The notes: a model not told the origin generated them from the letters alone. 64,000 nt of DNA from Candidatus Micrarchaeota archaeon (GCA_016212375.1 JACRGH010000044.1:1428-65427); one strand, 5' to 3'; shown: positions 4,829 through 59,566, counted from the first letter of the stretch. Numbers and translations: made by a program.

Positions 4829-4836
4829 ATATAAAA
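4829..4836 (-). promoter_or_regulatory. TATA box (TTTTATAT on the minus strand) for vapBC-1, giving a leaderless transcript
   Basis: Located 24-31 nt upstream of the vapB ATG. Confidence 0.3.
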
Positions 4837-7256: not shown

Positions 7257-7410
7257 GCATTTGAAAGCAGGATATAACCCATATCCAACGAAGTTGGAAA
7301 GCTTAAAAACGTCGCGTTTCGTAATGCCTGCGGCCCGTTTGGGAGCCTATCCGTCAAGTGATTGGCAAAGTTAAATCTTGAATCCAAAAACCATGTTTGG
7401 GGGAGTTTAC

Positions 7411-7911: not shown

Positions 7912-7985
7912 TTTAACCCGGGAGTGGGCCGCGCACCCCCCCATCTCCCGAAACCTTTTTCTTCAACCGTTCCATTGACATCACT

Positions 7986-8285: not shown

Positions 8286-9110
8286 ATGCTCAGCCCAATA
8301 AAAATAAAATTCGCCCACAAAAACGAGGGGGGAATCCGGAGGAACCTCAAACTGAAGGGACGACGCAAGTCTTCGAAGGACTTGCGAAGGCCACAATTCC
8401 TGGAAGGAATTGTGTGCGGACGCTCACCCCTGCGGTTCCGGCGGGGACAAATGGACGCCCCCATTGAATTGGTCATCGCCATCATTATCATGGTCACCAG
8501 CCTCGGATTGGGGTTTTACGTAATGGAAACCAGCAAAAACAACCAGTGCATATCCGCGCTACAGACGCAGACGCAACAGTTGCAGCAAGCCATCTTGGAC
8601 GTAGGGTTGGGCTCTGCCGGAAGCAAAAAAACGATCCGATTTTCCATGCCCAGTTGCGGGGACCAAGCCGTACAGGGCATCCAGTTCGTCAAATACACGT
8701 CCGCTGAATTGTGCCGCCGCTGTCCGGGCCATTATTCGGGGTGTTGGCAAATCGTGCCGGTTGCGCGCACCCGTGACGGCATGACGGCGGTCAGCGACGC
8801 GATTACCTGCATCGAATTGCCGGCAGAACGGGTGAGCATCGAGCAGGCACAGACACCGGACCAAAGTTGCACACCGTTAAGCACCACGCCCTGTCCGGAT
8901 GGTACGACCAGTTGCCTGAGCCAATTGGGCATCGGTTCTTCATTGTATAACCCGGCCTCCGGCACCGGCTCATCCAACTGGCTGACGTTGGGAAGCCAAA
9001 ACGCCCGCCAGTACCTCATCACGTTCAACAAGGTCCTTTCAGTCGGCGATGTGACGGGGCACACCCAAATCACGATGTGCGCGGTACCGGTGGGCGTTCG
9101 GACCAATTGA
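8286..9110 (+). CDS. Pre-pilin-like secreted protein. The true start is probably GTG 8412 (MCGRSPLRFRRG|QMDAPIELVIAIIIMV) or ATG 8451
   Basis: An RRGQ motif followed by a hydrophobic helix; Cys-rich C-terminal region. Confidence 0.5.
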   Translation: MLSPIKIKFAHKNEGGIRRNLKLKGRRKSSKDLRRPQFLEGIVCGRSPLRFRRGQMDAPIELVIAIIIMVTSLGLGFYVMETSKNNQCISALQTQTQQLQQAILDVGLGSAGSKKTIRFSMPSCGDQAVQGIQFVKYTSAELCRRCPGHYSGCWQIVPVARTRDGMTAVSDAITCIELPAERVSIEQAQTPDQSCTPLSTTPCPDGTTSCLSQLGIGSSLYNPASGTGSSNWLTLGSQNARQYLITFNKVLSVGDVTGHTQITMCAVPVGVRTN

Positions 9111-9221
9111 GAAAAGCCGCACCGCAAAACCGTGTAAAAAAAGACGCGTAAAAACGGATTCAAACCCGGGTCGGCCCAAATGTTCCAAACGGTTTAAAAC
9201 GCACGTAACGTTGTTGCTCTG

Positions 9222-9995
9222 ATGCGAGCCCGAAAAACAGTTGCCAGGACAAGCCACACCACAAAGGTCGGCAGTTTCCGCGGTCCACGTGATTCTTTTC
9301 GCGCCCAAATCGCATTGTGGATGATGACCAAATTTGCGATGGTCTTTTTCATCATCTTACTTGCCGGCATCATGATCAGTTTTTCCGACACGCAAAAAAC
9401 CGCCATCTGCCGCACGCAGGCGCAATCCATGGCCAACAACATCGCCTCGACGTTGAGCAACGTCATCAATTCCCCGGTGGAGGACGAACGCAAGGTCGTT
9501 TCCTTCGTGTCCTCGCTTTCGGTGGGCAAAAGCCAGCTGGAACGATACACCATCAACGTCACTAATATCCCGGCGCAGAACGACCCGAAAACCGGATCAT
9601 TGGTGGTGCACGTATTGTCCGGCATGGGGTGCGAAGGATACGCCCGCGCGTCTTATGACAAGACCATGACCATCATGGACCCGACAACGTTAAGTTCACG
9701 TTGGAATGCGGGTTTGAGCCTGGAAATGAGGCCATCGGACATCCAGAAACGGGATTACTACCTCATTATTGCCAAATGCAAACCAAAACAGGCCGGTTTT
9801 TCCAGCTATTTGTACTTGCGCCAATGCAACGGCGTGTTGGGGACGGAATTGAATCCGGAAACGTCATGTCCGCCTTATTTGGAAAGCGCGGAACCGGACA
9901 TGACCAAACGGTTGGTCGCAAATCCGCTGCTTCGATGCTGCGGATGGGAAGCAGTTGAAAACGGAGGAACACCCCAATGCCCGGCCCCCATCTGA
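9222..9995 (+). CDS. Pre-pilin-like protein (...FRA|QIALWMMTKFAMVFFIILLAGIMI)
   Basis: Class III-like N-terminus; part of the pilin gene array. Confidence 0.5.
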   Translation: MRARKTVARTSHTTKVGSFRGPRDSFRAQIALWMMTKFAMVFFIILLAGIMISFSDTQKTAICRTQAQSMANNIASTLSNVINSPVEDERKVVSFVSSLSVGKSQLERYTINVTNIPAQNDPKTGSLVVHVLSGMGCEGYARASYDKTMTIMDPTTLSSRWNAGLSLEMRPSDIQKRDYYLIIAKCKPKQAGFSSYLYLRQCNGVLGTELNPETSCPPYLESAEPDMTKRLVANPLLRCCGWEAVENGGTPQCPAPI

Positions 9996-13662: not shown

Positions 13663-16600
13663 ATGCGCCGCACGCGTTTTTCCCTCTTCATTTTGATGAT
13701 GCTGGTTTTGGAAATGACCGCACCCATCGTGTGGGCCGACAGCTTCCAAAGCCGGACACAAAGCGCCATTTACTTCGCCGGAACTCCACCCGCAAGCGGT
13801 GCACCTTCCGGCAGTTCAACCTCCGGAACAACCACCACCACTGGAGGCACGGCAGGTACTGGCGCTGGAACTCCCGGCACGCCTGCAACCGGCAGCGGAA
13901 CAGGCCCCGCCGCAAGCACCCCTCCATCCGGAGCGCCGTCCACTGCCGCGTCACCCGGCACTACCACGACCGGCGGCGTTACGCCACCCGTTCCCACAAC
14001 ACGCCCGGCGTCGGCATCCAGCGGACCTGCATGCCAAATCCACTCCATGAGCGATAGCGAGCGTAACCAGTTGCACCAATTCCTGTTTTCATCGAACGGC
14101 GCATTCCGCGGGGATTCGTTCAATGATTTGTCCGATTTGGATGCCCTGGTGCAAGCGGGGGAAAAGCCGACGGACCCGTTCAGCAAGGAGCGCAAAAAAC
14201 AGGACGCGCAGACTCCGGACCCCAATGCCACCGTTGACGTGATGTCCATCGCGGGATTGGCGGGAATGGATAAAATCGGCAAGGATGAAATCGCCAAGAA
14301 ATTCGGCGTGTGGGATAGCAAGACCAACTCCATCAAGAGCAACACGAATATCCCGATTGCCGATGCCAAGAAAATCCTCGCGCAACAACCGGCCGACTCG
14401 CCGTACCAGGAAGCGTTCAGGCAAATCCAGGAGTACATCAACGGCCAGGTCAACAGCAAGGAAAAGGCCGCGGCGGAAAAAGAACAGACCAAGGAATTGG
14501 CGCCGTACGAGCGGTACAAAGTCATCATGCCCGGCTCTGGCAAGGAAGTCAGCTTGGCGGAGGTCTTTCGCGCGCAAAAAATCGACCCGGAAAGCTGTTT
14601 GCTCAAGGATGCGCACATCAACGGCCGCGTCGGGTATATCGCGATTCTGGACACCGACATCACATACGGCACCAAGAACTCGCCCCTTTTGCAAGGCAAC
14701 CAAGTCTCACCGGCCACGGGCAAACCCAATGCCGAACTGACTTCCGTGCGCGGCGGGGAAACCATCAACCAGCACGTCTACGGCCAAAGCGTGGTGGGGT
14801 ACCTGAACCTCAACGGCGGAGGCAATCTGATCGTTCCGGAATTCTACCGCGACTGGATTGTCTTCACCACGGCCTACACCAAAGCCGACTTTTATTTTTC
14901 CATGATCACCTCGATCGCCGCATTTGGCGCCATCAAGGATCTTGAAGCGGTCAAGGATATCAAGCAAAAACAGTTGCAAAACCTCAAGACGCGCGAGCCC
15001 AATCCCCTGCTTGCCGCCCAGATACGGGAACAAACCACCGGCGTGGTCCAAAAGGACGCGGCAGGACGGTATCTTCTGAAAGAAGGCGGCATACAAGTGC
15101 CCGGCGGACAGGCCGCGAGCGTGGAAATCGACAGCGCCACGAACACGCTTAAGTATTACAACACGGCCGGCGCGCACATTGCACCGGCGGACGTAGCCGC
15201 GGTTCCAGACATCGATACGGCGCTAAAAAAACAGCCGGACTTGAGTTTCCGGACAAAAGGCGGGCTTGAAAACGACATCAAGGACGCTGAATTCAACATC
15301 GACTCGCTCCGAAAAGTCAAAGGTACCCTCGAAGGACGCGTCATAACCAGTTTCATGCTCGCGGGCGGCTGGCTGGGCCCTGCCCGCATGGCGTTCAGCT
15401 TGAACAACGGTATCTTATTCCAGGCCCGAAGCCAGGCCGACGACAAATTCCTACGTTTATTGGCCAACAAGGAAGTGCTCAGCGATTTCAAGAAGGCGTC
15501 CAGTTTCTTGGCCATCGGAAAAATCGAGGAAACGGTCGCCAAATACGCCGGATTGGGCCAGACGCCTCAAAAAGCATTTTTCGCCAAGAATTTGTTGTTC
15601 CTCAATTACCCCGAATCGCAAAAGACGCCCAACTACGAATCCAGCACGGTCCTGCGAAGCGAGGACGATGGCACCATCGGCATCAACACCCGTTGGCGGG
15701 GCGGGGCGTACACGCTGAACTACGAGGATATGCGGGCGTTTGCCGACAAACAAGGACCCGAGTCGTTCACGTCATTGGCCATGGTGTCCAACAACATCCT
15801 GGCCGAACCGGCGCTGGAGGATAAGAACCTCAAATCGCTTACCGCGTTTTTCTCCGTCGCCGTCCCGTTCATTGTTACGCGGAAAATATTCCAACTGCAG
15901 GAACGCACCCTGGGCGCCGGCATCTTCCTGACTACATTGGAGTATCTGGACATCAATGAAAACTATGCCAAAGACGTCCAGTGCAACATCGATGAGTACA
16001 ATGATTTGAAAACCGCTTATCGGCAAGCATTCACCGCCAGCGCAGCGACCACAATCCTGCTTTTGTCCCGCTCATTCCTCACCCCGTTCCGCAAATTCCT
16101 TCAAACCACGGATTTTGGAAAATCCCTCGGTGCCGGCATATTGAATGTCTTGGACTACACCAACCCCGGGGATGCCTGGCGCGTGCACGTCGGGAACCGC
16201 GGCATCACCTACACCTCCAATTGCAAGGACCAGATGCAGACCATCCTGTCCTGGCAAAGCATCCCGGAACGCGTGAGCACGACGTCCAATGCCTTGGCGG
16301 ACAAGTTGCCGGCGGTCAACGACCAGTTGTCCAAAATCGGGCTGTCCAAAGTATTGGGCGCCAACGCGGAGGCGGCGCAGACCGAAGCCAAAATCAAGAA
16401 CCTAAAGGACGTGTTGAACCTGCGCGCCGTGACGCAGAACCAAGGCGGATTCGTGCGCACGCCCGAACTGCTTTACCTGCACATCGACCAATCCACATCC
16501 ATGACCAAAGGAGCGCTGTATGATTTGGTCAACAACGCATGCGGATTGCAGGACCGCATCCAAAGCAAGGACGGCCGCAGTTTGTCGTTCGGCGAAGGGT

Positions 16601-17883
16601 TGGAGGCCAACAACGCCGACGGCTCAAAGGCGCTTTCCTTCAAATCCGCCATCTGGAAATTGCGCGCATTGGCCAACAACAAAGTACAGGCGTTGGGCCG
16701 CATCATCATCCCAAACACCATCATCCAGAGCAACTTGATGGGCGGGACGGATGCGTTTGTGGAAATCGCAAGCACGGGTCAAAGCACGCTGGTCAACCCG
16801 CCCTGCGACCTGACGTCGGCCATCCGACAGCTGACCGGACGGGACATCGGGACCGACTTGACGCAGGCCATCGGCAAGGTCCGCACCGTCGAGACGTCGG
16901 AAGGGCAAGCCGGATTGCTGGATGGGCAGATTGATTACGTCGGGCGCAACGGCGTCGGCGCGTCGGTGCCAACTCCGGAAGACTTGCGAAAATCCATTAT
17001 TTCCGGCGGCCGCATCAGCGTGCGCAACAACGGACAGGCCGTCCTTTATGGCGCCACGGGAAACAGCCAACAGCCCATCGGTACCCTCAAGAGCATCATC
17101 GGTGACAGCGGGGCATTGCATTATGACCAACCCACAGGGCAAATCAGCCTCATCATCTACTCGATTTTTGAAACGTCCAACCAGAACATCCAGAATTACA
17201 ACCTGGACACGCGGGGTTCGGGGGCGCAAATCCAGGTGCAAGCCAAGCGTGGTTTTGAGGACTCGGCCAACAAATTGAACGCCGGATTGGACAAGATTGC
17301 CGGAAAGGACGGCATCACGTCGTTTGAGACCAAGGACCACATCTACTACATCACCCCGGATGGAAAGCTCAGGGTCATCGACAAGAACACGGGCAAAGCC
17401 ACGGATTACAACATCACCGGACCGATTACAAAAGACGGCAACGGCAACTTGGTCATTCCCACGGACAAGGGCGACTTCAAACTGAATTTGACCAACGAAA
17501 ACGGACAGCCGACGCTCAACGCGGAAGGGCCGGACGGCCTAAAGGAAGTGCTTGCCTTGTTGGCAGCGCGCGGCGAAAACGGCATCATGACGTTCAATCC
17601 CTCCACCGGCGCCATCAACGTGTACAACGGCCAGGACGTGCCACTTAACCCGGCGTTTGCGCAGAACGGCATCGGCTTTTCCGGCAACAAGGACGGCACC
17701 ACGTCCGGCGTCCCCGCGGATAGCCCCTTTTTCGCACCCTCGTCGAGCAGTTCGACGACCACGGATTCGGCACCGCCTAAGCTGTTCCTCCCGTCGTGGC
17801 CGGAAGAGTTGCCTTGGGCGGCACTGTTTGCGGGATTGATTTTGTTCGGAGTCGTGGCGATACGGTACCGGAAAGTCGGATAA
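13663..17883 (+). CDS. Giant secreted cell-surface protein (1406 aa). It has a signal peptide, a Thr/Gly/Pro-rich stalk and a C-terminal transmembrane anchor with a basic tail that resembles a PGF-CTERM/archaeosortase sorting signal
   Basis: N-terminal MRRTRFSLFILMMLVLEMTAPIVWA; a TTTTGGTAGTGAGTPGTPATGSG linker; C-terminal SSSSSTTTDSAPPKLFLPSWPEELPWAALFAGLILFGVVAIRYRKVG. Confidence 0.65.
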   Translation: MRRTRFSLFILMMLVLEMTAPIVWADSFQSRTQSAIYFAGTPPASGAPSGSSTSGTTTTTGGTAGTGAGTPGTPATGSGTGPAASTPPSGAPSTAASPGTTTTGGVTPPVPTTRPASASSGPACQIHSMSDSERNQLHQFLFSSNGAFRGDSFNDLSDLDALVQAGEKPTDPFSKERKKQDAQTPDPNATVDVMSIAGLAGMDKIGKDEIAKKFGVWDSKTNSIKSNTNIPIADAKKILAQQPADSPYQEAFRQIQEYINGQVNSKEKAAAEKEQTKELAPYERYKVIMPGSGKEVSLAEVFRAQKIDPESCLLKDAHINGRVGYIAILDTDITYGTKNSPLLQGNQVSPATGKPNAELTSVRGGETINQHVYGQSVVGYLNLNGGGNLIVPEFYRDWIVFTTAYTKADFYFSMITSIAAFGAIKDLEAVKDIKQKQLQNLKTREPNPLLAAQIREQTTGVVQKDAAGRYLLKEGGIQVPGGQAASVEIDSATNTLKYYNTAGAHIAPADVAAVPDIDTALKKQPDLSFRTKGGLENDIKDAEFNIDSLRKVKGTLEGRVITSFMLAGGWLGPARMAFSLNNGILFQARSQADDKFLRLLANKEVLSDFKKASSFLAIGKIEETVAKYAGLGQTPQKAFFAKNLLFLNYPESQKTPNYESSTVLRSEDDGTIGINTRWRGGAYTLNYEDMRAFADKQGPESFTSLAMVSNNILAEPALEDKNLKSLTAFFSVAVPFIVTRKIFQLQERTLGAGIFLTTLEYLDINENYAKDVQCNIDEYNDLKTAYRQAFTASAATTILLLSRSFLTPFRKFLQTTDFGKSLGAGILNVLDYTNPGDAWRVHVGNRGITYTSNCKDQMQTILSWQSIPERVSTTSNALADKLPAVNDQLSKIGLSKVLGANAEAAQTEAKIKNLKDVLNLRAVTQNQGGFVRTPELLYLHIDQSTSMTKGALYDLVNNACGLQDRIQSKDGRSLSFGEGLEANNADGSKALSFKSAIWKLRALANNKVQALGRIIIPNTIIQSNLMGGTDAFVEIASTGQSTLVNPPCDLTSAIRQLTGRDIGTDLTQAIGKVRTVETSEGQAGLLDGQIDYVGRNGVGASVPTPEDLRKSIISGGRISVRNNGQAVLYGATGNSQQPIGTLKSIIGDSGALHYDQPTGQISLIIYSIFETSNQNIQNYNLDTRGSGAQIQVQAKRGFEDSANKLNAGLDKIAGKDGITSFETKDHIYYITPDGKLRVIDKNTGKATDYNITGPITKDGNGNLVIPTDKGDFKLNLTNENGQPTLNAEGPDGLKEVLALLAARGENGIMTFNPSTGAINVYNGQDVPLNPAFAQNGIGFSGNKDGTTSGVPADSPFFAPSSSSSTTTDSAPPKLFLPSWPEELPWAALFAGLILFGVVAIRYRKVG

Positions 17884-20922: not shown

Positions 20923-22095
20923 ATGATGCATGCCATGGTTTACCGGAAAACACCACGAAAACAGCACGGGTTGCTCACCGCCGTCGCAAACAACGACGTG
21001 GACGCATTGTTGGAATTAAAGGAAAAAGGCAAGCCGATAAACAATGCAACATTGGGACACGCATTACGGATAGCATCGGAAGTCGGAAGCCTAGAATTAA
21101 TACCATTAATTTTCAGCGACATCAAAAAATTAAAAGCGGCAACAAAAACAACGGATGAACAAGGAAAAACAGCACTCCACATCGCTTCGGAAAAAGGACA
21201 TGAAAATTTCGCCGATTTTTTGATTGAAGCCGGGGCCAACGTCAATGTTGCGGACAAGCTAGGACATACGCCACTGCATGCCGCGGCCAAAGAAGGACGA
21301 GCAAACATCATCCGGCTACTCCTCCGGCATAAAGCCGACCCCGAACAAGTTGACGAAAAAGGGGAAACGCCGCTCTACCATGCGGTCGTCTATAACCGAA
21401 TCAATGCAGTCCATGCGTTAGGCGAAAAATCAGACGTCAACCGGCATTTCGAACACCAAACCAACCCATTCGGCCCGGTCAGGGACAAATATGATTTGAA
21501 AATACTCGAAAATCTCGGTTTTCCAAAATTGGAGCAAAGCGAACAGGGAAACACGTTGCTGCATGTCGCCACACTCCGTGGAGATTCGGAAATGGCAACG
21601 GCGCTCATGCACCATGGGGCAGACCCGACCGAGCGCAACGGATACGGGGTGACTCCGATCCATTTGGCGGCCTACCGGGGCGATTTTTCTACGCTAAAAC
21701 AACTCGTGGGAAAAAGTACAAACCGCATCAAAATTAAAGACAACGCAGGCTTCACCCCGCTGCATTATGCGGCAAAAGCGAGATTGGATGATGCGAACGA
21801 ACACACCGAATTGATGGATTGGCTGATTAGCCAGGGGGCGAACGTTTCCGCCGAAAGCCACAAAAAAATTACACCGCTTCACTTGGCAGCAGACCGATAC
21901 GATGCGGAAAAAGCCATGGGATTACTCTTGGAAAAAGGCGCAAGAATCGATGCCCAAGACCACGAAGGCAATACCCCGCTTCATTATGCCGCACAAGGTA
22001 GGAGGAAAAATTTTGACTACTTGGTTTCAAGAGGCGCCGGTACAACAATACGGAATCAAAAGGGGCATCTACCGGCATACGACCGAATGGTTTAA
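20923..22095 (+). CDS. Ankyrin-repeat protein with about nine repeats
   Basis: Repeated G-TPLH-AA...G......LL..GA..N motifs. Confidence 0.8.
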   Translation: MMHAMVYRKTPRKQHGLLTAVANNDVDALLELKEKGKPINNATLGHALRIASEVGSLELIPLIFSDIKKLKAATKTTDEQGKTALHIASEKGHENFADFLIEAGANVNVADKLGHTPLHAAAKEGRANIIRLLLRHKADPEQVDEKGETPLYHAVVYNRINAVHALGEKSDVNRHFEHQTNPFGPVRDKYDLKILENLGFPKLEQSEQGNTLLHVATLRGDSEMATALMHHGADPTERNGYGVTPIHLAAYRGDFSTLKQLVGKSTNRIKIKDNAGFTPLHYAAKARLDDANEHTELMDWLISQGANVSAESHKKITPLHLAADRYDAEKAMGLLLEKGARIDAQDHEGNTPLHYAAQGRRKNFDYLVSRGAGTTIRNQKGHLPAYDRMV

Positions 22096-23247: not shown

Positions 23248-24366
23248 ATGGAAAAAAGCGCTACCGGCGGACTCAGTTTACTCCTAGTGTCGGTGTTTCT
23301 TTTTTCGGCGTCACTCCAGGCCGCAACGTCCGCGTCCAACGCCATCCCATCCTGCCCCAATAACCAAGTGTGCATGTTTTACGGCGCGTCTTTGGAAAAA
23401 AACACACCCGGACCTTCCGGCACCGGGTTTTCCACCTCGAAATTCGTCTGCCCGGTCAATATCCCCATCACCGGCACGTTCGGCGCCCCATATACCAACG
23501 CCAATGGAGAAACCCGCAGACGGCCCGGAATCGAAATGCGGGTGCCGGAAAACACGGACGTTAAATCTCCGGCAGCGGGAAAAGTGCTGGAGACCGGTTT
23601 TGAACAAACCGGTGCCGGACATTTCATCCTCATCCGCCACGCGACAAATCCCAACGTGGAGAGCAAAATCGGTTACCTGCAAGGACCGTCCACCAAACGG
23701 GGGGGAGAATCGGTCAAAGCGGGCGAAACAATAGGCAAATCCGGAAAAAGCGGTGCCGCGCTATGGCCCTCAGTTTATTTCGAACTGACACGCGCCACCA
23801 TTCCACAAATCGAGGTAGAAGACATCTGTAAATCCACCCCCGTCGTGTCAAGTTCGACCGTTGCTCCGGTAAAGGCGACGGTTGCAGGCCGAGTGGACTG
23901 TACGCAATTTTCGAACAATCCGGTGCCGGAGTCCTGGAGCGTCGTGCCGGGCGGCCGCTTCGGCAGCCAACGGGCGTACCCGGGCGGACACAGCGGATTC
24001 GATTACGGGGGATTCAACTGCGGGCAACCCGTCAAAGCGGTTTGGGCAGGCCAAGTGCGATACTACCGGAACACCGCTGCAGGCTACGGCAACGAAGTTT
24101 CCATCAAAACCGCGTGCACCGACGGGACTGAAAAAATTGTGACGTACGACCACCTCCAGGGGTTCAACGCGGCCGTATTGGACAAAGGTGCAGTACAAGC
24201 CGGAGACGTCATCGCCTACCTTGGAAATACCGGAGGCAACTATGAATGCCACTTGCACGTCAACGTCTTTGCATCGCCATTTCGAATCCAAAACGGATTG
24301 GATGCCGGCAACGTCATGAATCCAGAAGGACTGGTCAGGGGCGGCTTGCAGGGCCATTTGGCATAA
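23248..24366 (+). CDS. Secreted protein with a degenerate LytM-like domain and a C-terminal catalytic M23 peptidase domain
   Basis: Signal peptide; HSGFDYG (HxxxD) and CHLHVNV (HxH) zinc motifs in the C-terminal half; Cys pairs; paralog of 24463-25563. Confidence 0.7.
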   Translation: MEKSATGGLSLLLVSVFLFSASLQAATSASNAIPSCPNNQVCMFYGASLEKNTPGPSGTGFSTSKFVCPVNIPITGTFGAPYTNANGETRRRPGIEMRVPENTDVKSPAAGKVLETGFEQTGAGHFILIRHATNPNVESKIGYLQGPSTKRGGESVKAGETIGKSGKSGAALWPSVYFELTRATIPQIEVEDICKSTPVVSSSTVAPVKATVAGRVDCTQFSNNPVPESWSVVPGGRFGSQRAYPGGHSGFDYGGFNCGQPVKAVWAGQVRYYRNTAAGYGNEVSIKTACTDGTEKIVTYDHLQGFNAAVLDKGAVQAGDVIAYLGNTGGNYECHLHVNVFASPFRIQNGLDAGNVMNPEGLVRGGLQGHLA

Positions 24367-24462: not shown

Positions 24463-25563
24463 ATGCACGCGCGATGGACCGGAGCCATTTTTTTCCTAGG
24501 CTTGCTATTTATTGCGACATCCGTACAGGCCGCAACCATGCCAACGTGTCCGGCCAACCAGGTCTGCTTCTTTTACGGTGCCAGTTTGGAAAAAACGGCA
24601 AGCCAAAAATCGTTTTCGACCACCGGATTTTCCTGCCCGGTGGCGGCGGCCATAACCGTTCCGTTCAGCCACGCACGAAACGCCAATGGCAAAATCCGGG
24701 CCCATTTGGGCATCGGCTTGGACACACCCGTAGGCACGGCCGTGAAAGCGGCGGCGAACGGGAAAGTCATACAGACTCCGACCGATTATTCGGATTTAGG
24801 CACCGTCATCATTCTGCGCCATTCGGATAATCCCAAAGTGGAAACCCAATACGGCCACCTGCAAAAAGCCAATGTTAGACCCGGCGACACCGTCAAAAAA
24901 GGCGACATCATCGGATTATCAGGCCAAAGCGGACAGGGCACAGACAGGCCGATGCTGTATTTTGAACTGGACCGCGACGGCAATCCCAGCTCGGAAGTGC
25001 AGGACATCTGCAAGAACGCCTATGTGGCGCCGGCTCCGATAAGCAAACCCGGTCAAACCCCAAAACCGGCTATTCCAAATTCAGGCAATAGCGTGGTGGG
25101 CGGTCCATCGCTCGGAACCACTCAAATTCTGAGCATCCTAAAAGCGGTACGCTCGCCAGCGGCCGATGCGGACACGGCAACGTGTTTCTATGAAAAAAGC
25201 CAGCAGTACAACATCGATGTCGCGTATATGCTCGCGTTTTTTGGGCAAGAATCCACATGGGGAACAGCATCCGGCTACGCCAGCACGCATACCGTTGGTA
25301 ACATCGTCAAAAACGCACCGGGAAGCTACTTATGCGATCAGGCATCCAATGGCCGGTTTTGTTCCTACAGCAGTTGGTGCCGGGGTGCAGAGCATTGGTA
25401 TTACTACATCAAAAATTCGCCACTTTATCTGCCCCAGGGTAAAACGACACCGGAACAAATCATCCCGATTTACGCGCCCGCCAGTGAAAATAACGTGGGA
25501 TCGTACGTCGCATTCGTCAACCGGTGCGTAACCAATTGGAGAGCGGGTTCTTCGATCTGTTGA
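24463..25563 (+). CDS. Secreted protein with an N-terminal LytM/M23-like domain and a C-terminal glucosaminidase-like domain
   Basis: Signal peptide; the N-terminal module shared with 23248 (CP.NQVC.FYGASLEK...F.CPV); C-terminal AFFGQESTWGTASGYASTHTVGNIVKN resembles the N-acetylglucosaminidase family. Confidence 0.55.
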   Translation: MHARWTGAIFFLGLLFIATSVQAATMPTCPANQVCFFYGASLEKTASQKSFSTTGFSCPVAAAITVPFSHARNANGKIRAHLGIGLDTPVGTAVKAAANGKVIQTPTDYSDLGTVIILRHSDNPKVETQYGHLQKANVRPGDTVKKGDIIGLSGQSGQGTDRPMLYFELDRDGNPSSEVQDICKNAYVAPAPISKPGQTPKPAIPNSGNSVVGGPSLGTTQILSILKAVRSPAADADTATCFYEKSQQYNIDVAYMLAFFGQESTWGTASGYASTHTVGNIVKNAPGSYLCDQASNGRFCSYSSWCRGAEHWYYYIKNSPLYLPQGKTTPEQIIPIYAPASENNVGSYVAFVNRCVTNWRAGSSIC

Positions 25564-26625: not shown

Positions 26626-27402
26626 TTAACCCAACTGGGCGTCCAGCGTCTGCTGGAACACCGAGTACGGCTGCGCGCCGACCAATTGCGTGGATTTACC
26701 GGATTTGTCCACGATGAAGAACGTGGGCGTGCCTTGGACGCCGTAGCTCAAACCCAGGTTCTGATCCGAGGTGACTTCGGCATCATACGGCTTCTTGGCA
26801 AAACAATCGGCGAATTTTGCCGCATCCACGCCCGCGCTCTTGGCATAGGTGGCGTAAATCGATTCGTTGACTAAAGTGCCCACGTTGATGACGTCGATGT
26901 TGTCGTAGACGGCATTGTGGAATTTCCAGAACGCCGCATTGCTACCCACGCGGAACGCGCACAATGCGGCATTGGCGGCCGGGCGGGCGTTGGGGTGGAT
27001 TTGGTCCAACGGGAAGTGCATATAGATGAACTTGATCTTACCGGTGTCGACGTAATTCTTGATGAGCTGACCTTCCGAATCCGAGTAGAACCGGGCGCAG
27101 AACGGACACTGCAAATCGGAAAACTCAACCACCGTCAGGGGGGCATCGGCCTTTCCGAGGAACGGCTTGTCAGCGGCGGCGGATAAGTCAAACTTGGTCG
27201 GAGCCGCGGCAGTGGGTGCCGGCGTGGGCTGCAATTGTTGGCCGCTTCCGGAACCGCTTCCACCGGATGGCGCAGCGGCGGTCAGCTGGATTTTGGATAA
27301 ACCGGTGCTGATGGTGGTGCCGGCGGACCAGACGGCAACGGATAACATGAGGGACGATATAACCACGGCAATGGCCAGGATCAGTATAGTTTTTTCAGTC
27401 AT
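26626..27402 (-). CDS. Membrane-anchored DsbA-like thiol:disulfide oxidoreductase (thioredoxin fold)
   Basis: N-terminal transmembrane helix, a Gly/Ser/Pro linker and a CPFC active site. Confidence 0.7.
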   Translation of the reverse strand: MTEKTILILAIAVVISSLMLSVAVWSAGTTISTGLSKIQLTAAAPSGGSGSGSGQQLQPTPAPTAAAPTKFDLSAAADKPFLGKADAPLTVVEFSDLQCPFCARFYSDSEGQLIKNYVDTGKIKFIYMHFPLDQIHPNARPAANAALCAFRVGSNAAFWKFHNAVYDNIDVINVGTLVNESIYATYAKSAGVDAAKFADCFAKKPYDAEVTSDQNLGLSYGVQGTPTFFIVDKSGKSTQLVGAQPYSVFQQTLDAQLG

Positions 27403-46059: not shown

Positions 46060-47073
46060 ATGCTTTGGCTGGACCGTATCGCTATAAAGATTGGAAAACA
46101 AAGAAATCCAAACACCAAAATACTCCGGGATGACCCAATGATAAAACTACACGAGGAGGAATCCGTCTGGGGCAAACGCCTCGCCGAAAAGACCGTCGCC
46201 GACATCCTGCCTTACAGCATCGTGGTCATCGACAAACCCTGCGGACCCTCGTCGCACGAAGTATCCGCATATGTCAAGCGGATGCTAGGCGTTCCAAAAG
46301 CGGGACATTCCGGCACGTTGGACCCGGAAGTCTCAGGCGTCCTGCCCGTATTGCTGGGTGAGGCGACCAAAGCGGCGGGCCACTTGTTGAAGGATCGCAA
46401 GACGTACGTGGCGTTGATGAAATTGCGCGAGGCGCAGACCGATGCCCAGCTTGAAAAAGTTTTCGCCCGCTTCCGAGGCAAAATCTACCAAACGCCGCCG
46501 AAAAAAAGCGCGGTCAAGCGGGCTTTGCGCGTGCGGGAAATCCACACGCTGAAACTGTTGGAAAACGACGGCCATTTCGTATTGTTTGAATCCGACGTGG
46601 AGGCCGGCACCTACATTCGCAAGCTCTGTTACGACATGGGCGAAGTGCTTTTGTGCGGCGGACTCATGGCCGAGCTTCGAAGAACAGTGGCCGCCGGATT
46701 CGGGGAAAAAACGACCCACACCATGCAGGACCTCTCGGACGCCATCTGGTTGTGGAAGGAAAAGGGCGATGAAAAACCCCTCCGCGCCATGTTGATTCCG
46801 GTGGAAAACGCCATCCAACTCAAGAAAGTCGTCGTCTCGGATGGCGCCATCCAGCCCATCACCACCGGCGCGAACCTCGCCATTCCCGGAATCCTCGCTC
46901 TAGACGAAAAAATCAAAGCCGATGACGCGGTCCAAATCGTGTCCGGAAAAGGCGAACTGGTCTGTTTGGCCAAAGCCCTGCTCTCGACGGAAGACATCCA
47001 AAGCCGGGAAAAAGGGATTGCCTTTGACATCGAACGCGTCATCCGGCGCCACACGGCCTACGCGCCGGCTTGA
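46060..47073 (+). CDS. cbf5: tRNA/rRNA pseudouridine synthase Cbf5 (H/ACA RNP catalytic subunit) with a PUA domain. The start may be Met 46138
   Basis: GHSGTLDP catalytic motif (Asp), a C-terminal PUA-like region, and the conserved position after L14e. Confidence 0.85.
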   Translation: MLWLDRIAIKIGKQRNPNTKILRDDPMIKLHEEESVWGKRLAEKTVADILPYSIVVIDKPCGPSSHEVSAYVKRMLGVPKAGHSGTLDPEVSGVLPVLLGEATKAAGHLLKDRKTYVALMKLREAQTDAQLEKVFARFRGKIYQTPPKKSAVKRALRVREIHTLKLLENDGHFVLFESDVEAGTYIRKLCYDMGEVLLCGGLMAELRRTVAAGFGEKTTHTMQDLSDAIWLWKEKGDEKPLRAMLIPVENAIQLKKVVVSDGAIQPITTGANLAIPGILALDEKIKADDAVQIVSGKGELVCLAKALLSTEDIQSREKGIAFDIERVIRRHTAYAPA

Positions 47074-47109
47074 AAGGCTTTTTATCCACGCTTTCCCTCG
47101 GAATATACT

Positions 47110-50100
47110 ATGCCGAATCCGGAAATCAAAGGCCTACTTTTCGTGCTGGTTTTGTCGCTTCTTTTGGGCACGTCCGTTTCGGCGGCGGTCACAAACGGGG
47201 ATGAATCAGCCCAACCCCGATACACGTCGATCAGCGCGTTGGACACGACGACGCTGTATAATATGAACAAGTTTCCAACACGGGTCGACACTGTCAAGGA
47301 CTGCTCGCAGAACGCGGACCCGGAAACGAAACTATACTGCGCATTAATCCAAGCGGCGCCATCCCTATTCCAATCCTCCGTATTGGAAATAAACTTGGTC
47401 GTCAATTACGGCCCTAAAAGCCTACAAAGCATTTCCAAAAGCCCGAAAACATTGCATCCGCAAAAAGACACCTCAACCGCGACGCAATACGCGTTTGACT
47501 CCAGCGGCGACGGATATAACGCCATCTTTTTGGACCAAGGTACGCTGTACGTGAACGTCGCGGATTTGAGCACCGATACCGCGACGGCCATCATCAAGCA
47601 CCTGTACGACGAGAGTTACGCATTCAAACTGAACGCGGAGTGCATCATCCGGACGTCCACCAATGCGAAAGCCTTGGCGTTCAAGAACTGCCAGGTACTG
47701 GACGCGGCCAAGACGCCATTGGATAAATTGGACGTCAAGAAAATCGAATGCACGAAGCCCGCCAAAACAGGCATCATCGCCATAACGCAACCAATCAACG
47801 GGCAATGTCCCGCGACGGTGCCAAACTCAGGACAAACCGCCGCGTTGCAACCGGCTGGAAAAGGCACGCTGGATTCGGACCAAACGCCAAATTCCAATCC
47901 AGGCGAATGCAATGCCGCCGATTTTGACCCACCTATTAATGACCCGAAACCGAGGGCAGATGATTCACATGGAAATTATTGGTTTGGAGACCCGTCGAAT
48001 AACCAAGCCGGACATCACGAAGGCGTGGACATTATAGGCGAAGTTGGAAAAACAAAAATAATGGCAATAGGGCCGGGAATAGTCGAAAAATACGAAACAA
48101 CATTTTGCGGAAACGCAGTACTGATCAAACACGATTGCACGATTAACGGAAAAGTATTCCGGACCAAATATTGCCATCTTGACAAAACAAGCAAAAAACC
48201 GGCCGTAGGTTCGCAAGTGACCAAAGGCCAAACCCTTGGCTTGGTTGGAAAAACCGGCAACGCAGCAAATTCGGACGTCCCACACCTCCACATCGAATAC
48301 AACGCAGGAGGCACATTTACTCTGGGACAACCATCAAAAGGCGGGGATTTCGACCCGGTGGCTAAAGGGTTTATGCCCGCAACATTCAATAAGCCGTCTT
48401 CGGGCACACGGGTCGCCTCGCCACAAGGCATAACATTACTTGATTTCGCCGGATCCGAACAACTTCCCACAATCCAAGAATATATCCAAAACACATTCCC
48501 AAATGCGGGCGAGTTCAAGGCAGGCTCTCGCCATAATCCGAAAAGCACTAACTTCAACCCGGATCCGTGTTTGGCGACTAACCCAGACGATGACGCCAAT
48601 GGATTTTTCGGATATCGCAATCGCGGGACGGCGGCAAAACCCAACCCAGGTTGTGTCCACGCCGGAATCGATATTCGGGGAATCAAAGCCGGGATCGGTG
48701 GAAAACCGGTCAAAGCCATGCTTTCTGGAAAAATCTCAATAGTAAAGCCTCAATACCAAATTCAAACAGACTGCGCCATCATCGTGGACTCCGGGGATTG
48801 GGTCGTTTCATACGGGCACGTCCAACTGGATGAATATTGTGACACGAAACGAATAGGGGAACAAATATCCGCAGGACAGGAAATAGCAAAAATAGCGACC
48901 CAATTGTCTCCAAGTAACGGCAATGAATTGGACATTAAAATGCTTTACAAAGGAAACGTCCCTGAATTGAAAGCATTGACTATCCAACAGTTGAAATCGA
49001 ACACCAACCCTCCATATTCCAAGTATTTCAAACGTTATCCTGAAACAAAGACAATTTTTGCTGCCAAAGACTTCACCTTCGACGTGCCCAACTACGATGA
49101 CTACTTTTTATGGGAAGCGTACAGCACTTCATTAAAAGTTAAAAGTGCCGTGACGCCTTCAACGCCTACGCCAAGCAAAGGGACCCAAAAACCAACTCCA
49201 CCCAATACTCAAACCCCGACAACTGCCACGAATACCGACACCCCCGTTACCGACACCCTGTCCCAATTATGCGTCTATTACTACATCGATTCCACCGACG
49301 GCGCCAAGGACAAATTCTTCGACGTGGGCTTTGCCGCGTACGCCGGGGAAGGCGGTGCGTGCATCGTGGGAAGGGCGGGGGCCCAAAAACCCGGGATTAC
49401 GTATCCATCCGGATATACGGCATACGTCAACACCGCCCAATTGCCCGAATCCGAGTCGTACGAAGGCTGTTACTTGGCGAAAATGCCGCTGAACAAGCAC
49501 GGAGCAGATTACCCGACCGGCGCGGTCGTCAAGTTGTTCTTGAGCAAAAGCGCGGACGTATTCAAGGAAACGGGGCCGGCCATGTTGGACAAAGGCATCG
49601 TCCGCACCGAGGCGTCAGCGATGAAAATCGGCAATCCGGTTTGTGGCGTGCAAAAAACCACCAAAGGACCGGTAGTGGATAATGGGGAAGCGGGGAAGAA
49701 GTTCTTGGAATATGCGATGGAATTGAAGGGAATTCCTTACGCCCTTTGTGATACATGCATCCCAGATGGAGTCGCTTGCGCCACCATACCAATGTATGCA
49801 TACACGAAAATGATTGCGGCAGGCTATACGCTTCCGCAAGAATTTTACAACCTAGCAAAAAAAGAAAAGGTCCCATTCAAAGGTAAGGAGGTAAAAAACC
49901 CTGCAAATGCAGGCGTTTGGATGGACATCATCAATATTCCGGATATGACTCAACTACCGAAAAAAATCCAACTACCGTCAAATGCATACCCCAAGTCATT
50001 GCATAATTCTGACACGTGGGGAGGCGCAGCGGAAATTTTGGGTTGGGAAGTGTCTAAACAAAACGCAAAACCAGGCGACTTGGTAGTTTTCAACCGTCCC

Positions 50101-51492
50101 ACGGGCCAATGTAGCGGAGAAACAACGGATGAACAGCCCTATGACGCACAAGGATGCTGGAAGCGGGAAAGCCACATCGAAATAGTTTATGCAAACGATG
50201 GGGGGAAAATTTCCACGTTCGGAAGCGGAAGCAGGCCAGGACAAGGCCCGCCTGCCCGAATTAAAACGGACCGATCTGACGGGTTCAAATATTTCCACAT
50301 CCCCTGGATCGCACCCGGCGGAATCCAAACCAAAGGCGGTAGCGGACAGGCTGTGGCAGGCGGTTGCACCGACGCGGGATTGGCGGCCAAACTGAAAGAA
50401 TACGAGCTAACAATCGAAACAAGCATAAACGGAAGGAGCACATTGAGGGACCTGTCGGATTGGAAGCCGAAAATCCAGACCTACTCCAAACGCCACTACG
50501 GGGAGGACACCGCGGATTTGACGCCCACCATCATCGTTGAACACTTTACGGTTTCATCTTCCTTTGCATGGAATCTCGTCACTGCGTCCAGTTTGGCGGG
50601 GGAAGCACCCGGCGAAGCCAGCCATTTCGAAGTCGACGGCAAAAACATTTACCAGATTCTTCCAATCAACGTGCGTTCACGGGGCACTTTTGGCGCCAAT
50701 CACAAGTCCGTCAACATTGAAATGGTGGCCAAGACGGCCGAAGACCTAGCGGCAAAAACGCAAACACTGGACACGGCTTCGAAATTGACCGCCGCATTGA
50801 TGGCCCAGTGCGCCATTCCACTTGAAAAAGTCTTCAGCCATGAATCGTTCAACGGCGGCAAAAAAACCAATTCCGAATACAAAGACAATACGGCCTCCGA
50901 TTACGGGAGCGAGACCCGCACCGACCCCGGGGATAACAACCTGAAGACCATGAAGGGTAAAATTAGCCAATTAGGGGCACTGACTCCGGTAGAAGGAAGA
51001 GGTGGAGCCGAAGGTGGAGGCGGAAGTGGGGGCGGAGCGGTCAGCGTAGATGTGAATCAAGTGAGGGTGTTCAACACCGCGGATTGCGTGTCCCAAGCCA
51101 AATCATGCGGAAGCACGGATTACGATTGCATGCTGAAAAAAGCCGCGGAACTGGCACATATCGATTCCAGAATCAACACAGCGGTTGCGATGACGGAAAG
51201 CGGAGGAAACACCCGCAACTACAAGCTTGATGCGCTATCAAGTGCAGGAGCACAGGGAATAATGCAATTGATGCCCGGAACCGCCTCCGGGCAAGGAGTG
51301 ACAAACAGACTTGACCCCTACCAGAACATTTGCGGCGGAACCCGATACATCGCATATCAGCTAAAGCGATACGGCTCAATCGAATGCGCGTTCGCGTCAT
51401 ACGATGCCGGCAGTGTCAGCAACAAAGACTCCAATTCATGCGCCAAAACCGCATACACCATCAAGACTATGAACAATATGAAAATGGCATAA
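47110..51492 (+). CDS. Giant secreted multi-domain peptidoglycan hydrolase (1460 aa). Domains in order: M23 peptidase, a second M23-like domain, a CHAP/NlpC-P60-like domain, an amidase_2 (PGRP)-like domain, and a lytic transglycosylase (SLT)
   Basis: Signal peptide; HHEGVDIIG...PHLHIEY (M23, ~nt 47990-48310); CVHAGIDIRG...YGHVQLD (~48640-48910); a Thr/Pro linker (~49150-49250); C...GDLVVFN...SHIEIVYANDGG (CHAP-like, ~49700-50230); IIVEHFTVSS...SHFEVDG...NIEMV (amidase_2-like, ~50470-50860); a Gly/Ser linker; AMTESGGN...GIMQLMPGTA...Y (SLT, ~51140-51400). Confidence 0.75.
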   Translation: MPNPEIKGLLFVLVLSLLLGTSVSAAVTNGDESAQPRYTSISALDTTTLYNMNKFPTRVDTVKDCSQNADPETKLYCALIQAAPSLFQSSVLEINLVVNYGPKSLQSISKSPKTLHPQKDTSTATQYAFDSSGDGYNAIFLDQGTLYVNVADLSTDTATAIIKHLYDESYAFKLNAECIIRTSTNAKALAFKNCQVLDAAKTPLDKLDVKKIECTKPAKTGIIAITQPINGQCPATVPNSGQTAALQPAGKGTLDSDQTPNSNPGECNAADFDPPINDPKPRADDSHGNYWFGDPSNNQAGHHEGVDIIGEVGKTKIMAIGPGIVEKYETTFCGNAVLIKHDCTINGKVFRTKYCHLDKTSKKPAVGSQVTKGQTLGLVGKTGNAANSDVPHLHIEYNAGGTFTLGQPSKGGDFDPVAKGFMPATFNKPSSGTRVASPQGITLLDFAGSEQLPTIQEYIQNTFPNAGEFKAGSRHNPKSTNFNPDPCLATNPDDDANGFFGYRNRGTAAKPNPGCVHAGIDIRGIKAGIGGKPVKAMLSGKISIVKPQYQIQTDCAIIVDSGDWVVSYGHVQLDEYCDTKRIGEQISAGQEIAKIATQLSPSNGNELDIKMLYKGNVPELKALTIQQLKSNTNPPYSKYFKRYPETKTIFAAKDFTFDVPNYDDYFLWEAYSTSLKVKSAVTPSTPTPSKGTQKPTPPNTQTPTTATNTDTPVTDTLSQLCVYYYIDSTDGAKDKFFDVGFAAYAGEGGACIVGRAGAQKPGITYPSGYTAYVNTAQLPESESYEGCYLAKMPLNKHGADYPTGAVVKLFLSKSADVFKETGPAMLDKGIVRTEASAMKIGNPVCGVQKTTKGPVVDNGEAGKKFLEYAMELKGIPYALCDTCIPDGVACATIPMYAYTKMIAAGYTLPQEFYNLAKKEKVPFKGKEVKNPANAGVWMDIINIPDMTQLPKKIQLPSNAYPKSLHNSDTWGGAAEILGWEVSKQNAKPGDLVVFNRPTGQCSGETTDEQPYDAQGCWKRESHIEIVYANDGGKISTFGSGSRPGQGPPARIKTDRSDGFKYFHIPWIAPGGIQTKGGSGQAVAGGCTDAGLAAKLKEYELTIETSINGRSTLRDLSDWKPKIQTYSKRHYGEDTADLTPTIIVEHFTVSSSFAWNLVTASSLAGEAPGEASHFEVDGKNIYQILPINVRSRGTFGANHKSVNIEMVAKTAEDLAAKTQTLDTASKLTAALMAQCAIPLEKVFSHESFNGGKKTNSEYKDNTASDYGSETRTDPGDNNLKTMKGKISQLGALTPVEGRGGAEGGGGSGGGAVSVDVNQVRVFNTADCVSQAKSCGSTDYDCMLKKAAELAHIDSRINTAVAMTESGGNTRNYKLDALSSAGAQGIMQLMPGTASGQGVTNRLDPYQNICGGTRYIAYQLKRYGSIECAFASYDAGSVSNKDSNSCAKTAYTIKTMNNMKMA

Positions 51493-58270: not shown

Positions 58271-59566
58271 TTATTTTCCAAGAACCACGAAAACACGGAT
58301 GCGCAGGTCATCGGGCGGATATTTATGAATATCAAGGAATTTTTCCCGGTGTTTTTTCAGAAGCGCAGTCAATTCTTGGGCGGAAAGATGGGCATTTCTC
58401 TTCAATAGGTGCTCGATTCTGTCGTGGCCAAAAAAGTCGCCGTCTTTATTTCGGGCATCGGAAAGGCCATCGGTATAACCCACAAGTTTGTCGCCTACAT
58501 TCAAGTCGAGTTCATGCACTAGCTTAAAATTGGAGGGGGCATTGCCTTGCTTATCGTTCATCTGACCGACGCCGCCAAACCATCGGCCCAAAGCGATTGG
58601 ACCATCTTCACCGTTCGTATGACCGTGGCGCTCTAAACGATATGTGCCATCGTCTTGTTTGCGTAGAACGTAGATGGGCTCCGAACCCATGTGAACATAC
58701 CGAAAATTGACCTTTTTTTCCTCGGGACGAAGCTGGAAATAACCAGTTAACCCCTGGGCATATACTTCTGGGAAGTGTTGGTTGTGGGTTCGCTCAGCGC
58801 TGTTGCAGATAGCACGCAAAACATTATCTAAATATTGTGTGGAAACGGCATGGTTCAATCGCATGACTTTGCTGATATTCTTGCGCAACGTACGAAGTGC
58901 GGAACGAGCGGCGGAAACGTGGCCACGAAGGAAACCTTGGAACATCCCTCGAGGTTCATTGGCGGATGCGCCTTTACCGGAAAAGTCAAGCAAGGTGAAA
59001 AAAATATTCCGCTTGTCCAGAGGAATTAAATCCGAAGAATCTCCGCCGGTGCTGGGCACCTCCGGGCCCCCTCCTTTCTCAAGACCGTATTGTACCTGGA
59101 TAGAGCCGCTGGCCATTTTGGGTTTTTCCTGGTCATTCCAACGGGCAAGATCCCACGCGACCATTTGGGGGAGACCTTTGATAAAGGGCTTACGAAAACG
59201 AGGCGAAACACCTCCCAAGGAAGCGACTTCGTCGACTGATAAATTTTGCAACACATTCATATGACTATTGAAATCTTCAGGACTCAATTTGCTAATCTGT
59301 GAAAGGTATGCATGCGAAAAAGAACCCAACATGTGCATTTGATGGGGCGACAAAGAAGAAATGACATCCAGATGTTGAGGCGTAAGCGAAGTTAAGCGCT
59401 TCAAGTGGTCTGGTGAAAAAGCGGAAAGAGCGGCAACATGTTCTTTTGACCAATGTCTTAAAGGAAAAAATTTTTTAATAATATCTTTTTCGACGAGACG
59501 TGCACGAAGTTTGGCCATTCGCGGGGCTCCACGCAGAGAACGAAGGTTAGAAAAATTGCCAGACAT
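58271..59566 (-). CDS. PP2C/SpoIIE-family serine/threonine phosphatase with an N-terminal helical domain
   Basis: C-terminal GYTDGLSDARNKDGDFFGHDR...DDLRIRVFVV. Confidence 0.6.
   Translation of the reverse strand: MSGNFSNLRSLRGAPRMAKLRARLVEKDIIKKFFPLRHWSKEHVAALSAFSPDHLKRLTSLTPQHLDVISSLSPHQMHMLGSFSHAYLSQISKLSPEDFNSHMNVLQNLSVDEVASLGGVSPRFRKPFIKGLPQMVAWDLARWNDQEKPKMASGSIQVQYGLEKGGGPEVPSTGGDSSDLIPLDKRNIFFTLLDFSGKGASANEPRGMFQGFLRGHVSAARSALRTLRKNISKVMRLNHAVSTQYLDNVLRAICNSAERTHNQHFPEVYAQGLTGYFQLRPEEKKVNFRYVHMGSEPIYVLRKQDDGTYRLERHGHTNGEDGPIALGRWFGGVGQMNDKQGNAPSNFKLVHELDLNVGDKLVGYTDGLSDARNKDGDFFGHDRIEHLLKRNAHLSAQELTALLKKHREKFLDIHKYPPDDLRIRVFVVLGK

Follow-up and report, generated by a model that had tools for sequence, protein, structure and literature searches.

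Archaea have no murein, so a secreted archaeal protein built almost wholly of murein-specific enzymes points to an interaction between an archaeon and bacteria. What might such a protein be for, and does it belong to the genome in which it is found? The question is raised by one gene in a 64,000-nucleotide stretch of DNA (hereafter, the window) from a groundwater Candidatus Micrarchaeota archaeon (GCA_016212375.1, JACRGH010000044.1:1428-65427). The gene encodes a single polypeptide that carries two M23 peptidase domains, an NlpC/P60-fold domain, an amidase domain and a lytic transglycosylase (SLT) domain. We think it likely, from the sequence, that the product is a Sec-exported, soluble, multi-catalytic hydrolase of bacterial murein that is used outside the cell against bacterial walls.

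The open reading frame (ORF) lies where a preliminary description of the window had placed it, with the length given there. Its product is identical to a protein that is already public and that NCBI names [quoted passage not shown]. The gene and the segments of its product, numbered in amino acids (aa), are as follows.

47110..51492 (+): hydrolase ORF, complete, ATG start, 1460 codons (1460 aa), NCBI MBI5226350.1
47110..47184 (+): Sec-type signal peptide, aa 1-25 (MPNPEIKG-LLFVLVLSLLLGTSV-SA/AV, the slash marking the predicted cleavage site)
47185..47844 (+): family-defining N-terminal domain (N-domain), aa 26-245; within it, a core of about aa 45-200 is common to every member and has 4 invariant Cys
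48013..48312 (+): Peptidase_M23 domain 1 (M23-1), aa 302-401, active site complete
48658..48954 (+): Peptidase_M23 domain 2 (M23-2), aa 517-615, variant active site
49147..49254 (+): linker rich in Thr and Pro (about aa 680-715), as read from the sequence
49261..49659 (+): "middle" domain, the second of the two that define the family, aa 718-850 (CVYYY...DVGFAAYAG...)
49687..50334 (+): NlpC/P60-fold cysteine peptidase domain, aa 860-1075, with predicted catalytic Cys890 (ACATIP) and His1022 (SHIEI)
50521..50934 (+): Amidase_2 (N-acetylmuramoyl-L-alanine amidase), aa 1138-1275, with His1145, Glu1204, His1244 and Asp1272
51136..51447 (+): SLT (GH23 lytic transglycosylase), aa 1343-1446, with catalytic Glu1364 in an ES motif

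In a Pfam scan of the whole protein, Peptidase_M23 (1e-23, in two stretches), SLT (2.2e-17) and Amidase_2 (2.1e-9) gave significant matches, and CHAP matched at 0.003; the motif resemblances from which the protein was first described are not spurious. NCBIfam and PDB sequence searches agree, returning M23 endopeptidases of the ShyA/ShyC type, lytic transglycosylases of the MltF/Slt70 type and an XlyA-type amidase. When the protein was scanned segment by segment, four domains exceeded the curated Pfam cut-offs: M23-1 (63.3 bits against 28.7; PF01551), M23-2 (31.2 bits against 28.7, scanned alone; PF01551), Amidase_2 (42.6 bits against 26; PF01510) and SLT (67.5 bits against 21.3; PF01464). Of the five-domain anatomy proposed earlier, the two M23 domains, Amidase_2 and SLT therefore stand as described, and the domain then called "CHAP/NlpC-like" is an NlpC/P60 fold that falls below the Pfam CHAP cut-off (18.4-19.9 bits against 26, over the C-terminal half of the profile only; PF05257). 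The NlpC/P60 assignment rests on fold similarity to solved NlpC/P60 domains. At the sequence level, Cys890 and His1022 are invariant in the window protein (P0001) and its close homologs P0002-P0004; the homologs read DCATIP or DCAGVV around the cysteine, and a fragment, P0012, has the canonical DCSG.

The catalytic residues can be followed domain by domain. The HxxxD motif of M23-1 (HEGVD, 303-307), its middle histidine (His356, in CHL 355-357) and its HxH motif (HLH, 392-394) match the solved M23 enzymes 6jmx and ShyA residue by residue in the alignment. For Amidase_2, the alignment to XlyA (3hmb) pairs His1145, Glu1204 and His1244 with their counterparts in that enzyme, and by analogy with AmpD we take Asp1272 to be the third zinc ligand. 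The SLT motif had been read correctly, with ES at 1364-1365 and GIMQLMPGTA at 1383-1392; SYDAG follows at 1430-1434, and the domain was aligned to a phage tape-measure SLT (9b45) and to MltF.

Both M23 domains had been credited with the HxxxD and HxH zinc motifs. This holds for M23-1; M23-2 retains HxxxD (HAGID, 517-521) and the middle histidine (GHV, 569-571), but in the alignment to 9gy1 E-L-D (606-608) stands where HxH should be. The same position reads E-x-D or E-x-H in P0002-P0004 and in the fragment P0012. Because the variant is kept in three close homologs and a fourth, fragmentary one, it does not look like random decay. According to a review of M23 enzymes, the first histidine of HxH activates water and the second binds zinc, with H(x)nD, HxH and an upstream histidine making up the catalytic set (PMC9662197). 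In principle, and speculatively, the Glu and Asp of M23-2 could take over the water-activating and zinc-binding jobs. By analogy, M23-2 may instead be regulatory, like the degenerate LytM domain of PrgK, a protein of the Enterococcus plasmid pCF10. Since HxH is lacking and a conserved variant takes its place, the activity of M23-2 is uncertain; judged on its residues, it is a member of the family fold and not a canonical active member of the family.

This raises the possibility that the protein is mostly a regulatory or adhesive scaffold, in which one or two modules are active and the others bind the wall or tune activity, making it an adhesin or a local wall-opener at cell-cell contacts. PrgK offers a precedent: it joins LytM, SLT and CHAP domains, only SLT is active, and LytM and CHAP regulate it (PMC11323569). 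The missing HxH of M23-2 fits such a scaffold, as do degenerate M23 domains in two other secreted proteins of the window and a type IV pilus-like gene cluster, both listed below. However, M23-1, Amidase_2 and SLT keep their catalytic residues and NlpC/P60 its predicted catalytic Cys and His, all of them conserved among homologs, and no membrane anchor is present to hold the protein at a contact site. We regard a mainly regulatory or adhesive protein as quite unlikely, although this account overlaps with that of an exported murein hydrolase.

Would the protein leave the cell? The preliminary description called it secreted, and the N-terminal pattern agrees: a charged n-region is followed by a 15-residue hydrophobic core and then by VSA/A. 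This is the sole hydrophobic segment of the protein. In each of the 11 family members, a single hydrophobic stretch at the N-terminus is followed by an AxA-like cleavage site near aa 20-27; another membrane segment or a C-terminal anchor was found in none of them. Signal peptides were called by a heuristic (hydrophobicity plus an AxA-like site). A class III (pilin-type) signal was also considered, as KG/LL fits the archaeal prepilin pattern, and was rejected: the pattern fits only 3 of 5 close homologs, and all of these have an AxA-type site after the core. The protein contains 31 Cys, and the window also encodes a candidate for their oxidation.

26626-27402 (-): DsbA-like thioredoxin-fold oxidoreductase that starts with a membrane or signal segment

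Together, the cysteines and the oxidoreductase fit an extracellular, disulfide-bonded protein. The window encodes many Cys-rich secreted proteins, whose oxidative folding such an oxidoreductase would suit.

Two segments of the protein carry no annotation. Neither the N-domain nor the middle domain has a Pfam match or a significant PDB profile match. Their AlphaFold models have low predicted local distance difference test (pLDDT) scores: 35 for the N-domain, from a four-sequence alignment, and <50 for the middle domain, which was found in 11 family proteins, 10 of them aligned. We propose that these two orphan scaffold domains serve targeting or retention.

Does the gene belong to the archaeon at all? 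The catalytic domain families are bacterial in distribution, so one could suspect a bacterial, phage or plasmid fragment that was mis-assembled, or a very recent transfer without a role. The Pfam domains of the flanking genes bear out the archaeal setting described earlier: upstream lies cbf5 (TruB_N, DKCLD and PUA domains) and downstream S13-S4-S11-RpoD (Rpb3-type). Archaeal markers in the window comprise cbf5, SecY, an EMC3/DUF106 insertase, S13-S4-S11, the Rpb3-type RpoD, S9, L3, archease, NAC and ERCC4. All eight family genes examined, at seven loci including that of the window, sit after cbf5 and ahead of S13-S4-S11-RpoD. The seven loci come from independent assemblies and samples (JGI, ENA, Logan and NCBI), one of them a 204-kb contig of [quoted passage not shown], and the order cbf5-hydrolase-S13 holds even where N-domain identity is 25-35%. 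Shared synteny in independent assemblies excludes a chimeric assembly and indicates that the gene was kept in place through deep divergence. Two further elements lie in this conserved slot.

47072..47086 (+): BRE/TATA-like promoter motif (GAAAGGC-TTTTTATC; BRE, B recognition element), overlapping the cbf5 stop codon
51644..51827 (+): tRNA-Ser(GGA) gene interrupted by two introns, one in the anticodon loop and one in the T-loop, at the downstream edge of the slot

The motif, (G/T)AAAAGC(C/G)TTT(TT/AA)A, consists of a purine-rich element and a T/A-rich box and lies about 22-36 nt before the ATG in 7 of the 8 family genes (about 24-38 nt in the window gene); it is missing upstream of the second of two paralogs at one locus (L006). 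This position is the geometry expected for an archaeal BRE/TATA promoter that drives a leaderless mRNA, and we infer that the motif acts in this way. Given the conserved upstream motif, the hydrolase gene probably has its own promoter and does not merely ride on cbf5 transcription. At the downstream edge, the 415-bp gap before S13 holds the tRNA-Ser(GGA) gene, undetected by ARAGORN and Rfam; ARAGORN calls tRNA-Ser(gga) once both inserts are removed in silico. Its exons are kept in six homologous Micrarchaeota loci (L004, L005, L006, L007, L009 and L010), with compensatory changes in the anticodon stem and inserts that vary in length.

The slot is not closed to other genes. At L009 (1027-1697), a HEPN/nucleotidyltransferase pair lies between cbf5 and the hydrolase gene, and at L001 (13373-19280), where S13 is not adjacent, HATPase_c_3 proteins and an IS66 transposase lie downstream. 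In some relatives, the slot has thus also taken up mobile or defence-type genes.

Apart from the bacterial distribution of its domain families, the suspicion of foreign DNA draws on base composition: the G+C content at third codon positions (GC3) of the M23 and NlpC modules is 0.45-0.49, below that of the neighbouring genes (about 0.68-0.73). Against it stand the identical synteny at seven deeply divergent, independent loci, by which it is effectively refuted, as well as the conserved promoter motif and scaffold domains that are host-like in GC3. A full-length word-indexed search (8000 candidates scored) returned only four family proteins at E<=1e-5. Among 50,697 phage and 72,556 plasmid records, the matches listed each cover one domain only (30-51% identity, <=13% of the window protein), and a phage or plasmid origin of the whole protein was rejected on these single-domain matches. 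An assembly chimera or recent whole-gene transfer is likewise ruled out by the synteny and the promoter motif, and we give an artefact or roleless foreign DNA next to no probability. The gene is a fixed, vertically inherited part of the genome of this Micrarchaeota clade. The same searches agree with the earlier remark that so many lytic modules in one protein are unusual, with the addition that three-domain precedents exist.

What is inherited at this site is a rare family with a changing set of enzymes. An exhaustive HMMER search with the N-domain profile found 14 proteins among 1.84 billion cluster representatives, 11 of them at E<1e-10. Three homologs of the window protein share 46-49% identity with it. 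All 11 non-fragment members carry peptidoglycan-acting modules by Pfam, in the differing sets given here, where M23v denotes a variant M23 with E-x-D/H replacing HxH.

P0001 (window protein): M23 + M23v + NlpC + Amidase_2 + SLT
P0002: M23 + Polysacc_deac_1 + M23v + NlpC + Amidase_2
P0003: M23v + NlpC + Amidase_2 + SLT
P0004: M23 + M23v + NlpC + Amidase_3
P0005: 2×M23 + Glyco_hydro_3 + SLT
P0006: YkuD + SLT + M23
P0007, P0008: shorter forms
P0009, P0010, P0011: M23 + Amidase_3 + SLT

SLT is optional: it is missing from P0002, P0007 and P0008, and the set of P0004 likewise lists none. The modules also differ in how far they have diverged. M23-1 is 70% identical between P0001 and P0002, yet their N-domains are 50% identical, and among P0002-P0004 the scaffold domains share 69-82% identity and M23-2 and NlpC only 42-67%. 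In the window gene, GC3 is 0.69-0.73 in the scaffold domains and drops to the lower range given above in M23-1, M23-2 and NlpC/P60 (47995-48954 and 49687-50334); this mosaic is weak in P0004 and absent in P0002 and P0003. We considered a recent import of the M23 and NlpC modules as its source and rejected it: the pattern is strong only in the window gene and is hence a lineage-specific feature. Taken together, module presence and absence, per-domain identities and the GC3 mosaic point to module-level recombination on a stable scaffold. One related genome carries tandem family paralogs in the slot between cbf5 and S13 (L006, 103-4737 and 5229-8639), the first with M23, deacetylase, M23v, NlpC and Amidase_2 and the second with M23, Amidase_3 and SLT.

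Eight murein-directed enzyme families (M23, NlpC/P60, Amidase_2, Amidase_3, SLT, GH3, YkuD and the deacetylase) occur on one scaffold, which leaves murein as the only plausible shared substrate. Whose murein would it be? The protein could be a self-directed autolysin, remodeling a murein-like or pseudomurein wall of the archaeon or of an archaeal host. The gene is core-like and fixed in a housekeeping cluster, as would suit a cell-cycle function, and one member carries YkuD, an L,D-transpeptidase and thus a wall-building enzyme. However, SLT and Amidase_2 act on murein that contains N-acetylmuramic acid (MurNAc), whereas pseudomurein, which contains beta-1,3-linked N-acetyltalosaminuronic acid, is the substrate of another enzyme family. 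Moreover, the window ORFs that were scanned include no genes for wall synthesis, and a comparative study of 163 Micrarchaeota genomes never mentions peptidoglycan, murein or pseudomurein. In a survey of archaeal hydrolases, only 2 homologs came from pseudomurein-forming classes (PMC12352652). A role on the archaeon's own wall therefore seems to us very improbable.

With bacterial murein as the target, a working model can be outlined. The archaeon would export the protein via Sec and remove the signal peptide, and the mature protein would combine two lineage-specific scaffold domains for targeting or retention with five catalytic modules that together could address each main bond class of peptidoglycan. 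M23-1 is predicted to cut peptide cross-links and NlpC/P60 to cut inside the stem peptide, at bonds of the gamma-D-Glu-diamino acid type. Amidase_2 would take the stem peptide off MurNAc at the MurNAc-L-Ala amide bond, and SLT would cleave the glycan bond between MurNAc and N-acetylglucosamine. M23-2, with its E-x-D variant, may be a variant endopeptidase or a regulatory or binding module. Exchange of catalytic modules by recombination would leave related lineages with different enzyme mixes. The enzymes may serve to lyse or breach neighbouring bacteria, whether in predation, in competition or to gain episymbiotic access, or they may digest the wall material of these bacteria.

The last of these uses shades into nutrient scavenging, in which the enzyme mix would digest wall debris of dead bacteria rather than live cells and supply amino sugars and amino acids (D-amino acids, diaminopimelate or lysine) to a metabolically limited cell. 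A soluble protein with a signal peptide and no recognised wall-binding domain would suit this, and so would the GH3 NagZ-like exo-glycosidase of P0005 and the deacetylase of P0002, which would make breakdown more complete. Norongarragalinales are reported to lack lysine biosynthesis (PMC12892359), and "recycling" roles have been proposed for DPANN archaea (PMC9723730). On the other hand, the rapid exchange of modules resembles an arms race more than housekeeping catabolism, and no genes for muropeptide uptake or catabolism adjoin the hydrolase gene at the loci examined. The same enzymes would also lyse live cells from outside, at least Gram-positive ones, so scavenging and attack overlap as explanations. 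We consider scavenging as the primary role unlikely.

Several observations weigh against an attack on bacteria with five active enzymes. No recognised cell-wall-binding domain (LysM, SH3/SH3b, PG_binding or similar) matched anywhere in the protein at E<=1-10. The E-L-D of M23-2 leaves one of the five modules without a canonical active site, and PrgK, with only one active domain, illustrates that five recognisable folds need not mean five activities. The reported hosts of Micrarchaeota, Thermoplasmatales and Sulfolobales, are both archaea (PMC12892359). Finally, at least one family-carrying genome has been discussed among Norongarragalinales that are metabolically rich and may not depend on a host, so that an obligate bacterial host is not implied. 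An offensive tool is, on present sequence data, the best available interpretation, with scavenging and attachment likewise in play.

How much of this is new? Large extracellular murein-lytic SLT proteins are known in Pacearchaeota and Woesearchaeota (PMC8204110, citing Rinke 2013 and Castelle 2015). Such large DPANN proteins have been reported since 2013-2015, with bacterial hosts or prey as their suggested targets (PMC8204110, PMC9723730), and "vampiristic" Woesearchaeota have been proposed (PMC9723730). In experiments, two M23 hydrolases from haloarchaea killed a bacterium (Strock et al. 2025, PMC12352652). The idea of an archaeal protein directed at bacterial walls was therefore presented as more novel than it is: archaeal and DPANN peptidoglycan hydrolases are published, and this very protein had been deposited and named.

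The closest comparisons differ in instructive ways. The archaeal hydrolases of Strock et al. (e.g., the Halogranum salarium M23 protein "Woldo") are likewise secreted, carry bacterial-type domains including M23, show domain shuffling and were given an anti-bacterial interpretation. They have one catalytic domain plus a recognised wall-binding domain (PG_binding_1) and are patchy in distribution and often on plasmids, whereas the window protein has five catalytic folds, two orphan domains, a Micrarchaeota host and a fixed chromosomal site in a ribosomal-protein cluster. That survey defined modular archaeal hydrolases by a minimum of one catalytic domain plus one recognised wall-binding domain. 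The window protein lacks the latter, and proteins like it would have been filtered out. The DPANN family fam00969 (Castelle 2021, PMC8204110; Vigneron et al. 2022, PMC9723730) shares with it a DPANN host, large size and secretion, an SLT/GH23 domain and the suggestion that bacterial walls are the target. By their published descriptions, the fam00969 proteins are lytic transglycosylases of up to 3000 aa from Pacearchaeota and Woesearchaeota with no M23 or amidase mentioned, whereas the Micrarchaeota family belongs to a different phylum and is defined by its own N-terminal and middle domains, with SLT optional.

Outside the archaea, PrgK and related hydrolases of Gram-positive conjugation systems also join several hydrolase folds (M23/LytM, SLT and a papain-like Cys peptidase) in one extracellular polypeptide, one M23 being non-canonical. 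PrgK is bacterial, membrane-anchored, part of a type IV secretion system and composed of three domains. In contrast, the window protein lacks an anchor, counts Amidase_2 among its five folds and comes from an archaeon. It differs from PrgK/VirB1-type proteins in having no membrane segment besides the signal peptide and in its neighbours, which are cbf5, tRNA-Ser and ribosomal proteins in all loci, with no secretion-system genes. Phage tail lysins, tape-measure proteins and modular endolysins are modular in a similar manner, and the closest SLT match is the tape-measure protein of Geobacillus virus E3 (51% over 100 aa; PDB 9b45). However, in the phage records the SLT domain alone matches, at <=9% coverage, and the hydrolase gene has no phage genes nearby and a conserved chromosomal locus.

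Within the literature considered, the elements that appear to be new are a Micrarchaeota family with two orphan scaffold domains, five catalytic folds in one protein and a conserved E-x-D/H variant of M23, together with a recombining module set and a site between cbf5 and tRNA-Ser/S13 that does not change and comes with a conserved promoter motif. The same literature proposes no interaction between Norongarragalinales and bacteria, and these hydrolase genes go unmentioned in the largest comparative study of Micrarchaeota.

The window holds further genes for surface and secreted proteins, and two whose composition sets them apart.

1856-9995 (+): type IV pilus or archaellum-like cluster
13663-17883 (+): 1406-aa ORF whose product has a signal peptide, a long region rich in Ser, Thr, Gly and Pro, a C-terminal membrane anchor and no Pfam match
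20923-22095 (+): ankyrin-repeat protein
23248-24366 (+): secreted wall-hydrolase candidate 1, with a signal peptide and two M23 domains, one degenerate and one intact (GGHSGFD...CHLHV)
24463-25563 (+): secreted wall-hydrolase candidate 2, in tandem with the first, with a signal peptide and an M23 without HxxxD and HxH
58271-59566 (-): SpoIIE-type phosphatase

The C-terminal M23 of the first hydrolase candidate closely resembles that of P0006, and the C-terminal region of the second matches a GH73 glucosaminidase weakly, at 20.7 bits, which is under the cut-off. The pilus-like cluster includes a T2SSE-family ATPase (1856-4147), an 823-aa protein with hydrophobic segments at its end (4785-7256) and three small proteins (at 7378, 8286 and 9222) with class III prepilin-like N-termini, in which R-G-Q or R-A-Q precedes a hydrophobic stretch; it could be attachment machinery. 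The 1406-aa product is probably a surface or S-layer-type protein. Markedly low GC3 (0.51 and 0.46, respectively) and a codon usage that agrees poorly with that of the other genes in the window (correlation 0.42 and 0.36) make the ankyrin-repeat and phosphatase genes candidates for horizontal acquisition.

Interactions between archaea and bacteria are poorly documented, and the sole experimental case in the literature considered is haloarchaeal (PMC12352652). On one shared scaffold, the family described here presents some 11 naturally occurring combinations of domains; it also has two orphan domains that may set targeting and a non-canonical M23 site, and because its locus is fixed, the gene is easy to recognise in further genomes. 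If active, these proteins would be a source of multi-bond lytic enzymes with antibacterial potential. A bolder and, on balance, doubtful possibility is that a core gene in a ribosomal-protein cluster serves as a polymorphic wall-lysis cassette, in which the two new domains target or retain the protein and up to five recombining murein-cutting enzymes are tuned to local bacterial prey. If this were true, the family would show arms-race-like diversification comparable to that of bacterial polymorphic toxins, and the Micrarchaeota that carry it would attack or parasitise bacteria, a cross-domain lifestyle of a kind yet to be described in this phylum.

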